A stretch of 63,590 bases of DNA, taken from sequence record OR880647.1. One strand, given 5' to 3'. The translations under genes were made by a program, and so were the position numbers. Numbering within the stretch: the first letter of the stretch is position 1; each line of letters opens with the position of its first letter. Below the pieces are notes generated by a model. It worked only from the letters and a program-made list of their open reading frames with translations. It did not search any database and was not told the origin of the DNA. Positions 55,911 through 60,336 of the stretch are shown here, piece by piece. The DNA comes from Escherichia phage ECP2304.

Positions 55911-58247
55911 TTATTTGCTTAAGTCCTTGAAAACACTCTCAATTGACTCGTCTATATACCATCCCAATCCCCTGAAATTACGCTTCAACGCATCTTCACG
56001 CGTGACTGGAACGAGCGCACCCATGTCTACAAGTTGCTTGATGGTAAGGTCTGTTGCAGTACCTGCTCCCATCCTGTGATTCTTGAATGCTGCTAGACCG
56101 TAGGTTCTGCGTGTGATAGTTGCCTTTGGAATAATACCGTCAACGCGCAGCTCCTTACGATCACATGCAATCTTACCGCCAAGATAGTCTTTGCAGACCT
56201 GACAGATAGCCTTCACACGTGTTTCGTCATCACCGCCAATAGTACCTTTTTCCCATGCGTTGATCATAATGTCCTGACCGTGCGTAACAAAATCTACCGC
56301 CCATTGCATGTGGTTTGGTTGCACCACAGGATTGATCCAGTTTTCCCCCACCGCTAACAGAGAAGCAAGACGCAAAGCTTTAAGGTGTGCACGGTTCCAA
56401 GGCTGACGGATTGCTTCGTCTTTGGTTGCGTTAATGTGTTCGTCACATAACAGGTTAAACTCCCGTTCAATCCTTTCAGCTTCAGGACTTAACTGGACTG
56501 TGACAGTTTGAAACTTCGCCATTGTTACTAAGGTGTGGTTAACAAGATGGCACACCATGTCCTTTAACTGCTGGGGCATTATAATCTCAGGGTTTTCGTT
56601 TGCAGGAACTCGATCTCCTTCATATTGCACAATGTGGAAACGGGACAAGAAACCGTCTTCCATCATTTCACGGGTTAATGCTTCAAAGAAAGTGTCCGGT
56701 GTTGTTTCTCCCAGCACGCTGAACGCTACCCCTTCCATCGTTTTGGTATTATTAGCCTTATCAGAATATCCAATACCGCCAACAACATCCATTGCGCCAG
56801 ATTTTTGATATACATCTGTGATAGTTTGCTTCAGAGTATAGTTTGCAGTACCGGGCTGAGCTGTTGCCATACCTTTGATGGTTTTGCCAAACTCTCCGTT
56901 AATGTTCACAAACGAACTATGATCCGCAAAACTTTTACGCAATGCAGGACCGGACGCATAGTTAGTCATGTCTACAAATTCATGAACTTGCGGTAATTGC
57001 TCCCCTACTTGCTTGCAAATATAGCTGGGTCCGGCGTGAAGCATCTCTTTACCCACACCTGAGCGAGCGATAAGCACAAAGTAACCGTTCAGCCCTGTGT
57101 TGGTGATAGTATTCCATACCTTACCGCACACACCAGACAGAAATGCTAACGATGCGGTGATTGCAATTTCTTTCACGGGACGTTGCGATGCTTTGTAGAT
57201 GTACTTCGCAAGCTCCCCAGCAAGCCCCGGCGGCCACTCAATAGCGGTTGCATCAATAGACGTACTTTCTGCAACTACTATTTGACCGGAAGGACTAACT
57301 GTGGTTACAGGCATCTCTGTTACTTGCTGCATTGTGCTGTGTGCGGCTTGCATACGGGCAGCATAATCTCGCGCCAGCGCCGCTACGTTTTCCTGGGCAA
57401 TGCGCTCACGCTCCATGCGACCGCGGCACATCCGCAAACAACGGTCAATATGAACATTGTTCTTATTAGCCTTCTCACGTTTGCCCAGTGCACTGTAACG
57501 GAACAGACGGCGACATTGCTCATTACTTTCTGTATAGAATGCATACATAGAAATAAGAGCAAGGTCTGCTTCAGACTGGGAAGGGAATCCCATTTCAACC
57601 CATTCACCATTGAATAGGCGTGCATACTTATCCCCGTTGTCCGCTTCAAGCGCGCGCTGGTGAATAGTTGCATCGTCTTCTACCGGATCTTTTTCTACCA
57701 GTTCAATTTCATATGTCTTGCGCTGAAGATCAATTTCATTCACAAGCATAGTAAGATAATGATCGCGTTCGGCAACTGGTTTGTTATAGACAGGATTACC
57801 CGTGCAGATAATAAAACGCTCCTGACTATAAACTTCGACACCATCACGTCGACGACCTTTGCCGATGTTTCCTCTTAACCACAGGTGAACACCCAAGCCT
57901 GAGCGACTTACTTCGGTGTAAGTATCGAACGCGGTCATGATCTGTTCGAAGCGGCGCAACTGTTCCGGCGTCGTGTGCTTCTTGGGATCTGGTTCATTGG
58001 TTGCGTTCTTTACATCCAGGTCGATGCAGGTGAACGGGTCTTGTGCAGTAAGCACGAAGCCTATATAAGGTTTGTTGAAATGAGCAGCACAACCTTTGGC
58101 AGCTTCAAACGTCATAAGCATATCCGGATCGGTAACGTCCGCTGCCATCAAACGTCCGATATCGTTGTCCCATATTAATGGGCGTTTATCTTCACCAGCA
58201 ATAGCCCACTGATTGTATTGTTTAATTTCATCAGGAAATAATTTCAT
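55911..58247 (-). CDS. DNA primase-helicase (PrimPol-like N-terminus, SF3/D5-like helicase C-terminus)
   Basis: 778 aa; acidic DxD-type motif TCIDLDV, GVHLW; Walker A ARSGVGKE; ATG at 58245-58247. Confidence 0.6.
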   Translation of the reverse strand: MKLFPDEIKQYNQWAIAGEDKRPLIWDNDIGRLMAADVTDPDMLMTFEAAKGCAAHFNKPYIGFVLTAQDPFTCIDLDVKNATNEPDPKKHTTPEQLRRFEQIMTAFDTYTEVSRSGLGVHLWLRGNIGKGRRRDGVEVYSQERFIICTGNPVYNKPVAERDHYLTMLVNEIDLQRKTYEIELVEKDPVEDDATIHQRALEADNGDKYARLFNGEWVEMGFPSQSEADLALISMYAFYTESNEQCRRLFRYSALGKREKANKNNVHIDRCLRMCRGRMERERIAQENVAALARDYAARMQAAHSTMQQVTEMPVTTVSPSGQIVVAESTSIDATAIEWPPGLAGELAKYIYKASQRPVKEIAITASLAFLSGVCGKVWNTITNTGLNGYFVLIARSGVGKEMLHAGPSYICKQVGEQLPQVHEFVDMTNYASGPALRKSFADHSSFVNINGEFGKTIKGMATAQPGTANYTLKQTITDVYQKSGAMDVVGGIGYSDKANNTKTMEGVAFSVLGETTPDTFFEALTREMMEDGFLSRFHIVQYEGDRVPANENPEIIMPQQLKDMVCHLVNHTLVTMAKFQTVTVQLSPEAERIEREFNLLCDEHINATKDEAIRQPWNRAHLKALRLASLLAVGENWINPVVQPNHMQWAVDFVTHGQDIMINAWEKGTIGGDDETRVKAICQVCKDYLGGKIACDRKELRVDGIIPKATITRRTYGLAAFKNHRMGAGTATDLTIKQLVDMGALVPVTREDALKRNFRGLGWYIDESIESVFKDLSK

Positions 58248-58248
58248 C

Positions 58249-58773
58249 TTATACACCCAATTTGTTACAACCGTGGTTCTTGTGAAAATTGTAATCGGTT
58301 AATGCTTTACTTACAGCCATTTGTGCATCTTCAAAAGTATCGTATACTCCAAGATATTTTGAAGTCCCGTCGACGCCTATACGAGCTTGCCATTTATTAG
58401 TACCTTTGTGAAATGTAACTCCATTTACTCCAGAGGTATTATTGCGTTTCTTACTTTGATTTCGTCCATTTTCTTTGTGAGTAACAAGACGCAAGTTTTC
58501 AATGCGGTCGTCGTAACGAATGTGATTAATATGGTCTATTTCCATACCTTCCGGTATTGGACCATTATGCATTTCCCATACTATGCGTGAACGGCGATAT
58601 AGTTTGCCTTTAAGAGCAATACGAACATATCCTTTATCCGTAAGCGTACCTGCAACGCAACCTTCTTTCGCTCTTGCGCCCATATCTTTCTTCCAATACA
58701 ACACTCCTTCATTATATTGGAATATTACCGCCCATTGTGGGAAAGCTTTAATTTCAGCGGGAAACAGTTCCAT
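58249..58773 (-). CDS. HNH homing endonuclease with AP2 DNA-binding domain
   Basis: HNH motif EIDHINHIRYDDRIENLRLVTHKEN; AP2-like SGVNGVTFHKGTNKWQARI. Confidence 0.7.
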   Translation of the reverse strand: MELFPAEIKAFPQWAVIFQYNEGVLYWKKDMGARAKEGCVAGTLTDKGYVRIALKGKLYRRSRIVWEMHNGPIPEGMEIDHINHIRYDDRIENLRLVTHKENGRNQSKKRNNTSGVNGVTFHKGTNKWQARIGVDGTSKYLGVYDTFEDAQMAVSKALTDYNFHKNHGCNKLGV

Positions 58774-58782
58774 TGCAAATCC

Positions 58783-59028
58783 TTACTTAGAAGCTAGTTT
58801 TAACATGGATATAATTGCCGCCTTAATATTATCAACTGTGTCCCGAGCTTCTCGCTTGGACGCAAATGTGTTAACATATTCCACGCTATCCAAAACTTTA
58901 ACGTATAAGCGATAGCCTTCACCTTCCACATGTTCAACAACATAACCGTTGATGTCTAAAGACTTGCCAAAATAGCAACATGAAGATTTTGAATTAACCT
59001 GTTTCATGAAAGGATCAATTGTAGCCAT
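58783..59028 (-). CDS. hypothetical protein (81 aa)
   Basis: ATG 59026-59028 after GGAGGA; track ORF extends to 59076. Confidence 0.45.
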   Translation of the reverse strand: MATIDPFMKQVNSKSSCCYFGKSLDINGYVVEHVEGEGYRLYVKVLDSVEYVNTFASKREARDTVDNIKAAIISMLKLASK

Positions 59029-59302
59029 AAATCTGTTTCCTCCGCCATTCTTCATATGCTGAATTATTTGCATCATATACTTCGCAAGCGTCTTTCATGC
59101 TGTCATACAGTCCAAGGAAAGTTCGCCTTGTTTCCCCGCCTGCGTCTACCCATGTTAATCGGGCGAGCCATTTACCAGTTTTGTGATCGAAAGTAACACC
59201 CTCACGCCCGCTTACATTCTCCCGAGGCACTCGAGGTTTCCGGCGTGCAAGCCCGCGACCTTTGAAATTACTGCCCGGGACAGTCCTGCACTTACGACCC
59301 AC
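59015..59302 (-). CDS. AP2-domain DNA-binding protein
   Basis: AP2-like SGREGVTFDHKTGKWLARL; non-ATG start (GTG near 59302 after GGAGG, or TTG at 59320); start uncertain. Confidence 0.4.
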   Translation of the reverse strand: MGRKCRTVPGSNFKGRGLARRKPRVPRENVSGREGVTFDHKTGKWLARLTWVDAGGETRRTFLGLYDSMKDACEVYDANNSAYEEWRRKQIYGYN

Positions 59303-59507
59303 GACCAACCTCCGACACAATCCGACCAGCGTGCAACATTAAGACAGGCTCTGCAACTTCGCGCACGTAAACGTAAACGTTAGCAATTTTAACTTCGCCC
59401 GGCAGCTTGCCGCGCAGCGAACACAACTTGCGACGGCTAAGACCGAAGCGCTTTTCAATTTCTGATGTGGTTATGTATTTAAGATCAAATTCTTTTTGAC
59501 AGTCCAT
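59292..59507 (-). CDS. hypothetical DNA-binding protein (71 aa), first gene of minus-strand arm
   Basis: Strong RBS TAGGAGGTAGGT then ATG; putative HTH segment. Confidence 0.5.
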   Translation of the reverse strand: MDCQKEFDLKYITTSEIEKRFGLSRRKLCSLRGKLPGEVKIANVYVYVREVAEPVLMLHAGRIVSEVGRGS

Positions 59508-59613
59508 ACCTACCTCCTAACAGCACTATACACAATCCATAGTAATGCATCCACAATTATTCCACCTGAAGTTATGATGTGAGAGGATTGTTAATATATA
59601 ACCACATGTGATG

Positions 59614-59704
59614 GAAAGTTTTGGGTAGGAATAGTTGGTGCTCCACAGTTTGCGCAATGTGACCGAAAGTTTTGTGAGTTTTGCGAAGTTTTGCGAAGTT
59701 TTGT
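59614..59704. repeat. Array of GA(A)AGTTTTG direct repeats in right-end non-coding region
   Basis: Five copies including tandem GCGAAGTTTTGCGAAGTTTTG at 59681-59701. Confidence 0.7.
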
Positions 59705-59761
59705 GGTGCCACTGTTGCTAAAAACTTTAATAAAAACAATAAGTTGGTGCAGTAAGTTTTT

Positions 59762-59787
59762 GCGTTTTGGGGTAAAACGCATTTTTT
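59762..59787 (+). terminator. terminator-like hairpin in right-end non-coding region
   Basis: GCGTTTT-GGGGT-AAAACGC followed by ATTTTTT. Confidence 0.4.
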
Positions 59788-60336
59788 ACCCTAACACCCA
59801 AATCCCGACTGTTAGTAAAAAACGTATATAAATCAATAGCATAGATACTAAATGAATAGTGATTGGAATGGGTAGAAATCCAAATGATGGAAGTGGAATA
59901 ATTTATTCCTACTTGATAGAATAATGGAATCGGTACTCCAGAGCGCAAAAACCTAAAACTTTCAGTCAACAGACTAAAAACGGATAGAAACTAAAAGTTA
60001 ATAAGTAATAACATAAATATATATAAAATAAGGATTTATTAGTAATGTATATAGTACCTATTGGTATTATTTGAATGTTTTTGGGTCATTGTTAAAAAGT
60101 CCCAAAACTCACAAAAAGTGAAAGAATACAATTCGTGACAGGATTGTTAATGGAATAAGGTGTATGGATATACAGTATTATTCCAGATTCCGGAATAATT
60201 GGAATAATGGAATAAATTATTGAACTATTGTGATCGGAAGGTATATCAAGCTATAATGCGCTTAATCGCGGGATATTGGAGGAGGACTTTATTGCGCGGT
60301 TAACCGGACCAGTAGGAGGGCTGGCCCGGAAGTAGT

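Follow-up and report, generated by a model that had tools for sequence, protein, structure and literature searches.

How did a predicted HNH-AP2 endonuclease and a primase-helicase, encoded side by side on the minus strand of Escherichia phage ECP2304 (OR880647.1), come to begin with similar residues? The phage is a member of Seuratvirus (Queuovirinae) with E. coli as its host, and the window referred to throughout is the whole stretch of 63,590 nucleotides (nt) that was analysed. The original prediction for this locus interpreted the similarity as the footprint of a homing-endonuclease insertion at the 5′ end of the primase gene that had duplicated its start. A megablast search with positions 55911–59100 returned 35 related phage records, with best matches 78–97% identical. 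We propose that an HNH-AP2 homing-endonuclease gene is lodged in the 5′ end of the primase-helicase gene, where it has captured the start of that gene and supplies a diverged rescue copy in its place, a reading to which we assign a probability of roughly 0.8. This is a new insertion architecture of a putative free-standing homing endonuclease (Table 1).

The two starts agree at 10 of 16 residues, one fewer than originally counted, and at 32 of 48 nt. The DNA motifs quoted for them, TTTCCnGnTGAAATTAAA and CAnTGGGC, were correct, as was the single nucleotide said to separate the two genes. The similarity also stands up to controls within the window: the next best ungapped match to the 48-nt start of the HNH gene reaches 26/48 among ~127,000 positions on both strands, and the next best match to its N-terminal 16-residue peptide reaches 6/16 across all six frames.

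To define the resident sequence, we read the primase start directly in 15 endonuclease-free sequences, namely KS_W4, SLUR25, Skure, SA126VB, Seurat, CAjan, Greed, STP-SP5 and seven metagenomic or IMG/VR contigs. All 15 begin with ATGGAACTGTTTCCCGCTGAAATTAAAGCTTTCCCACAATGGGCGGT or with a version a few substitutions away (type A). The HNH open reading frame (ORF) opens with this same primase start over about 44–47 nt; its first 47 nt (58773–58727) are identical to those of SLUR25 and Skure at 47/47 positions and to those of KS_W4 at 45/47. KS_W4 also has the upstream sequence of the window directly before its primase ATG. This identifies the upstream copy as the resident primase start. Identity with the resident sequence stops after nt 47 (58727, codon 16), where endonuclease sequence starts, and the empty site is defined to the nucleotide by the 15 relatives. 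Relatives without the HNH gene have a sharp common boundary at the insertion site, and their primase rejoins that of the window from codon 26. A chance or convergent likeness of the two N termini, for example through a common short motif, would suit the brevity of the repeat and its modest residue identity, but is refuted by the 47/47 agreement with endonuclease-free primases; together with the poor next best match in the window and the lack of the leader residues in HNH homologues elsewhere, this leaves it next to no credibility.

The empty site supports the predicted insertion at the primase 5′ end, but resident sequence was not simply duplicated: of the two copies, the upstream one is the resident start, whereas the downstream one is a strongly diverged replacement (type B). 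Over nt 1–75, type B is 61–65% identical to every endonuclease-free relative. By contrast, primase nt 76–150 are 94–96% identical to the E. coli phage relatives and 84% identical to Salmonella phage STP-SP5, and the whole gene is 93–97% identical to the closer endonuclease-free relatives. Compared with SLUR25, 27 differences fall within nt 1–75, against no more than 10 in any other 75-nt stretch (median 2), and the divergence step at the 5′ end has a P value between 1e-12 and 1e-22 (about 1e-22 for 27 versus ≤10). In carriers, nt 1–75 of the primase gene do not share the history of the remainder. The longest in-register run common to both start copies is 10 nt in the window and 8 nt in a second cassette, described below. 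We also considered a transposon with target-site duplication and rejected it: the copies are only 32/48 nt (67%) identical, the downstream copy differs over 75 nt, and the sole encoded protein is the HNH-AP2 endonuclease.

The primase-helicase matches phrog_3022 (DNA primase) with E = 3e-245 over residues 2–757, as well as the Pfam families NrS-1 polymerase HBD and DUF3987. Its N-terminal segment, ...FP.EIK...QW[AC][IV]A..DK.P, lies within the conserved domain and is present in homologues of 40–53% identity and in Nonagvirus. As the N terminus is a conserved part of the prim-pol domain, a replacement copy is required once the resident start has been taken over.

The HNH ORF contains an HNH_3 domain (PF13392; residues 61–104, E = 3.2e-21, 75 bits versus a cut-off of 24.8), whose motif, EIDHINH...DDRIENLRLVTHKENGRNQ, is intact and aligns with family members. 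A phmmer search against the PDB matched the AP2 domain of WRI1 (E = 1.2e-4) and, weakly, I-HmuI (1u3e, E = 0.19), and several close homologues carry a precomputed match to the AP2 family (PF00847). The match to phrog_99, 'HNH endonuclease' (E = 1e-65), covers residues 16–170 only, and homologues from phages, IMG/VR and a 5.8-billion-protein collection mostly align from residues 13–17 of the HNH protein. In an alignment of 13 homologues, the family starts M-N-W-x-x-I-F-x-Y-x-x-G-x-L-Y-W-K, with its Met at residue 12 and its conserved Trp at Trp14, and the primase-derived Pro-Gln-Trp stands at the position of the family's Met-Asn-Trp. The start codon of its own and the intergenic position that are usual in the HNH-AP2 family are absent here. 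An in-frame TAA lies four codons 5′ of 58773; the HNH ORF can therefore open only at the primase ATG. These features show that the predicted endonuclease lacks its own start and would be translated from the resident primase ribosome-binding site and ATG, fused to primase residues 1–16. The Shine-Dalgarno sequence involved, AAGGA, is overlapped by the stop codon of the upstream ORF (58783–58785). For annotation this carries a warning, in that the first 16 residues of the 'HNH endonuclease' are primase.

Downstream, a putative weak ribosome-binding element for the primase, GGGTG, is supplied by the cassette. The TAA-G-ATG layout resembles the stop/start arrangement of nrdA/mobE in T4 (PMC2988022) and suggests, by that analogy, that the primase is translationally coupled to the endonuclease. 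A scan of 57900–59900 for promoters and terminators gave no excess over shuffled sequences.

An endonuclease ORF in frame with an upstream 'exon' is common among intron ORFs, and the locus could be imagined as a group I intron or an intein-like element that splices primase codon 16 to the downstream gene, the downstream start being a relic. Almost everything at the junctions speaks against this. An Rfam search of 57800–59400 at E ≤ 1 found no intron family, group I or II, and only one chance small-RNA match; an intact ATG with a Shine-Dalgarno sequence follows the HNH stop after a single nucleotide, so that a ribozyme core could not be accommodated outside the ORF; among carriers, the downstream copy has an open frame and is 97–100% conserved; and Pfam finds HNH_3 and AP2 only, with no intein motifs or Hint domain. 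We regard a splicing element as hardly credible.

A second cassette was found in a 60-kb Logan contig from a metagenomic Seuratvirus (L056). Its protein, P0002, starts MELFPAEIKAFPQW and then departs into a different HNH-AP2 sequence, whose identity to the HNH protein of the window is 52.9% beyond residue 17. The other 12 homologues stand at 49–53.5%, and P0002 is therefore no closer to the window protein than other family members are. The junction follows nt 42 (Trp14) of the same primase start. After the HNH stop comes GGAGGAACT, which together with the stop codon forms TAAGGAGG, a strong Shine-Dalgarno sequence (AAGGAGG) in the place equivalent to GGGTG in the window, and the primase then begins with a third version of its start (type C). 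In codons 3–17, type C differs from type A at 14 of 15 codons, 11 of them synonymously, with only the non-degenerate Trp kept; it is type A-like again from codon 18. Of the first 25 codons, 14 have changed synonymously and 3 non-synonymously, giving a near-resident protein. Types B and C have the 17-mer AATCAGTGGGCTATTGC in common, where type A has CCACAATGGGCGGTCGC.

The two cases raise the possibility of a recurrent natural 'home-and-rescue' strategy, in which HNH-AP2 endonucleases capture the start codon and ribosome-binding site of an essential gene and carry a diverged rescue copy, here in two independent instances with junctions at most 5 nt apart in the Seuratvirus primase. We hold this generalization tentatively, at slightly less than even odds. 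If it is correct, the coincidence between Gln-Trp of the primase and Asn-Trp of the endonuclease family may have helped both insertions, and the near-complete recoding of the rescue copy would have been selected, against self-cleavage and against repeat-mediated loss.

Where the replacement start came from can be addressed through the outgroup, the sister genus Nonagvirus. Queried against GenBank phages, type B is 72.7–78.5% identical to other Seuratvirus records and 84% identical to Nonagvirus over 44 nt. Over codons 4–16, Nonagvirus JenP1 is identical to type B at 33/39 nt and to type A at 26/39. Among the 18 differences between types A and B, Nonagvirus has the B state at 10 and the A state at 6. 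At the protein level, type B has Ile-Ala-Gly, like the prim-pol proteins of 40–53% identity, whereas type A has Val-Ala-Asp. Because type B is closer to Nonagvirus and keeps Ile-Ala-Gly, import is favoured over duplication in place, and the replacement start was probably imported from an unsampled Queuovirinae lineage in which the endonuclease lay just upstream of the primase. The alternative is an in-place tandem duplication of the first ~50–75 nt at the time of insertion, for instance through repair of a staggered break, after which the downstream copy diverged under selection without any import. The outgroup and protein comparisons tell against it, and it needs a rate of change 5–10 times that of the adjacent sequence; type C and the donor searches, set out below, lend it some weight. 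On balance, we consider duplication in place unlikely.

Among the 35 GenBank relatives, the window-type cassette is present in two, Dru_SM1 and SA80RD. Further carriers are three ENA/Logan contigs with identical cassettes (L057–L059) and one contig from a JGI collection (L065). The cassette stands behind three unrelated upstream sequences, in each case exactly at the ATG, and each of these sequences also precedes an endonuclease-free primase. The remainder of the window primase is nearest to that of endonuclease-free SLUR25 (97.1%), with the carriers L057 and Dru_SM1 at 93.8% and 96.1%, respectively. Among carriers, identity is 100% in the left arm, 97–100% in the type B tract and 93–98% (nucleotide) in the HNH body. 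All five HNH alleles compared (window, Dru_SM1, SA80RD, L057 and L065) are intact, with no frameshifts, and the pairwise ratio of non-synonymous to synonymous substitution rates (dN/dS) beyond the leader is 0.09–0.45; the fused protein is therefore maintained by selection.

By analogy with free-standing phage endonucleases (PMC2988022), we infer that the HNH-AP2 protein cleaves DNA and that its gene homes. In a mixed infection, the enzyme would cut or nick an endonuclease-free type A primase gene near codons 14–25, and the break would be repaired from the carrier genome. The left homology arm would consist of the 47-nt resident start plus any upstream homology, and the right arm of the primase gene from codon 26 on. 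Downstream of the endonuclease, homology resumes only beyond the type B tract, which would therefore always be co-converted with the endonuclease. Divergence of the replacement start could act in three ways: it would remove the target site from the carrier, block recombination between the two copies and hence deletion of the element, and deny the invading left end a pairing partner downstream of the endonuclease. The proposal makes near-exact predictions, with the target within nt 30–75 of type A, types B and C as resistant alleles, and both homing arms defined.

Another role for the same protein is conceivable. Instead of homing selfishly, or in addition to it, the endonuclease may be kept as a weapon or exclusion factor that cuts the primase gene of co-infecting relatives while the diverged start protects the carrier. 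Purifying selection acts on the HNH body across alleles that are 2–7% diverged, the target would be an essential replication gene, and a phage intron endonuclease has been shown to mediate interference competition between co-infecting viruses (PMC11620839). However, the gene is absent from most close relatives, and homology arms with a linked resistant site are what homing predicts, even though the two readings are compatible and cannot be separated by sequence. We judge a role as a weapon to be quite improbable.

Several observations weigh against insertion of a homing endonuclease with an imported rescue copy. The AP2 domain of the HNH ORF scores below threshold (PF00847, 19.4 bits versus a cut-off of 33.3, E = 1.3e-3). 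Type C, with its almost resident protein, is farther from the Nonagvirus outgroup than type A and fits in-place recoding as well as import; its synonymous excess over full saturation is marginal (~P = 0.03, calculated by hand) in a region delimited post hoc. Searches of GenBank phages and IMG/VR, together with protein searches, turned up no potential donor, meaning a genome whose primase starts with type B or C and that has a free-standing endonuclease upstream. Specifically, the two HNH carriers are the sole GenBank phages with type B DNA, a degenerate pattern for type B had 0 matches in IMG/VR, and the type C cassette is absent from GenBank phages. Protein searches for B- or C-type starts yielded no candidates with a 40-residue query and, with a 200-residue query, only short fragments and distant prim-pol proteins, none with a B- or C-type start. 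Nor did we find among carriers the signature of a recent sweep, in which the cassette would be less variable than its flanks: divergence of the HNH body matches that of the flanking primase, and the element therefore did not arrive very recently. Its several genomic contexts could equally have arisen from ordinary mosaic recombination around an old insertion as from repeated homing.

In its domain composition, HNH_3 with a putative C-terminal AP2-type domain, the protein resembles T4 Mob proteins, I-HmuI relatives and the HNH + AP2 family, and like free-standing phage HNH endonucleases it is encoded by a small ORF that occurs sporadically among close relatives at an essential DNA-metabolism gene (PMC2988022; PMC10448857). 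Known free-standing phage endonuclease genes, however, have a start of their own and are either intergenic or extend into the end of the ORF upstream (PMC2988022; PMC10448857). The gene in the window instead sits inside coding sequence, fused to codons 1–16 of the gene that it presumably targets, and its cassette carries a replacement 5′ end of that gene. Insertion of a free-standing endonuclease gene within an essential replication or nucleotide-metabolism gene of a viable phage has precedents in Aeh1 nrdA/mobE, T4 gene 39/60 with mobA and Aeromonas phage 25 gene 43 (PMC2988022). In those three cases the host protein consists of two reassembling polypeptides (PMC2988022), whereas the window primase is whole: the 16-residue N-terminal piece goes to the endonuclease, and the primase gets a second copy. 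Split inteins flanking a free-standing endonuclease likewise sit in essential, often replication, genes without destroying their function (PMC2677866). Such fractured genes depend on protein trans-splicing (PMC2677866), but the window has no intein motifs and needs no splicing. The locus thus represents a third way into an essential gene, by neither splicing (introns, inteins) nor a split protein, in which the start is taken over and a substitute is brought along.

The nearest parallels are mitochondrial and include Allomyces macrogynus atp6, Phlebia radiata cox2 and atp6, and Ophiostoma rps3 (PMC4019555). In these elements, too, the endonuclease ORF travels with a foreign or duplicated copy of one end of the invaded gene, joined in frame such that the gene keeps working, and the displaced end stays adjacent (PMC4019555). 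In the organelles it is the 3′ (C-terminal) end of the gene that is involved, the enzymes are of the LAGLIDADG or GIY-YIG type, and introns are frequent (PMC4019555). The phage arrangement is the 5′ mirror image with an HNH enzyme, and its resident piece has become the translation start of the endonuclease. It also appears to be a natural counterpart to the recoded-rescue design of synthetic gene drives: home-and-rescue (HomeR) and Cleave-and-Rescue (ClvR) drives link a nuclease against an essential gene to a recoded, cleavage-resistant segment of it, such that carriers are protected and functional (PMC7968924; PMC6442612). Those drives are synthetic, Cas9-based and built for diploid animals (same sources); the phage element is natural, and the corresponding logic is presumed. 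Full-text literature searches, in which journals were partly covered, returned no description of such an arrangement in Seuratvirus or other phages.

Table 1 Features of the endonuclease–primase locus in the window
Feature	Position	Strand	Remarks
HNH-AP2 ORF	58773..58249	-	174 amino acids, begins MELFPAEIKAFPQWAV
Primase-helicase (prim-pol/helicase)	ATG at 58247	-	778 codons, begins MKLFPDEIKQYNQWAI
AAGGA Shine-Dalgarno sequence of the resident primase	58780..58784	-	6 nt before ATG; now serves the endonuclease ORF
Resident type A primase start, ATG + 44 nt, codons 1–16	58727..58773	-	Equals HNH ORF codons 1–16
Predicted junction peptide of the primase leader/HNH fusion			AFPQWAVIFQYNEGVLYWK
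HNH-AP2 body, residues 17–174	58252..58726	-	HNH_3 at ~58462–58593; AP2 at ~58315–58431
GGGTG, weak Shine-Dalgarno-like, inside the HNH 3′ end	58254..58258	-	6 nt before primase ATG
HNH stop TAA (58251–58249) and single spacer nucleotide (58248)	58248..58251	-	Sequence reading
Replacement type B primase codons 1–25	58173..58247	-	Differs from type A over 75 nt
Rest of primase-helicase, codons 26–778 and stop	55911..58172	-	Resident-type sequence

The first 44 nt of type A (58730–58773) are nearly invariant, synonymous sites included. Salmonella phage STP-SP5 (L062, 1512–1555) has 1 difference in these 44 nt, where ~8 would be expected from a primase that is elsewhere ~80% identical; STP-SP5 is the one sufficiently diverged comparator on which this excess conservation rests. 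A constraint on translation initiation is a possible cause, as is homogenization of the cassette's left arm through gene conversion. On its upstream side, the primase ATG is adjoined to the nucleotide by at least five unrelated sequences in different Seuratvirus genomes (58774–58803 and its equivalents in L001–L007 and L056–L072), examples being ...taaggatttgca, ...ggaggtcttaattaaat, ...gaaggtaaata, ...gcgaggctgata and ...aaaaggataaatc. Mosaic boundaries therefore recur at the primase start, in agreement with the proposal that genetic exchange has its boundaries at nuclease genes (PMC10448857). A further break lies inside the primase gene. The C-terminal (helicase) half (~55911–57050, nt 1200–2337) is ~64% identical to Seurat, CAjan and slur01, compared with 93–98% for nt 76–600, which therefore places a second mosaic break between nt 600 and 1200.

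The primase start is annotated differently among carriers. In Dru_SM1 (L002, 2000–4363) an upstream start is used that overlaps the HNH ORF by 26 nt; in SA80RD (L006, 3016–5352) the primase ATG is placed 1 nt after the HNH stop, the position (58247 in the window) that the alignment of all relatives supports. A GTG at 58256, given by the ORF listing, was considered as the primase start and rejected, since all relatives align from the ATG at 58247.

At the fusion joint of the endonuclease, codon 17 of the HNH ORF (58725) is ATA in the window and Dru_SM1 and GTA in SA80RD, and codon 16 is GTA or GTG, while the rest of the HNH N-terminal region is mostly invariant at the protein level. The variation at codons 16 and 17 possibly reflects relaxed constraint at the joint.

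Two genes upstream of the primase, a 101-codon ORF on the minus strand (59018–59320; tblastn match at 59087–59242) contains AP2 sequence only. It matches Pfam AP2 with E = 9e-5, below the curated cut-off, and positions 208–258 of phrog_99 with E = 2.5e-6, and it overlaps the next ORF (58783–59076). It appears to be a leftover of an older HNH-AP2 endonuclease, reduced to the DNA-binding part, or else an AP2 protein in its own right. Endonuclease-free KS_W4 has an annotated ORF upstream of its primase that is comparable in size and position, the likeness extending to these two features only.

The HNH gene of slur01 (at 19.6 kb) was considered as a similar fusion and rejected: its annotated coding sequence has a normal 163 residues, and the tblastn extension enters the preceding ORF. 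In a 57-kb Logan/ENA contig, a homologue of the HNH-AP2 family (P0106, 298 amino acids) runs without a stop into a RusA-type Holliday-junction resolvase, with PF13392 and PF05866 both matched, the RusA Met lying internally and the HNH part at the N terminus. Loss of a stop codon may account for this, or it may be a further case in which an endonuclease of this family has become joined in frame to a neighbouring phage gene.

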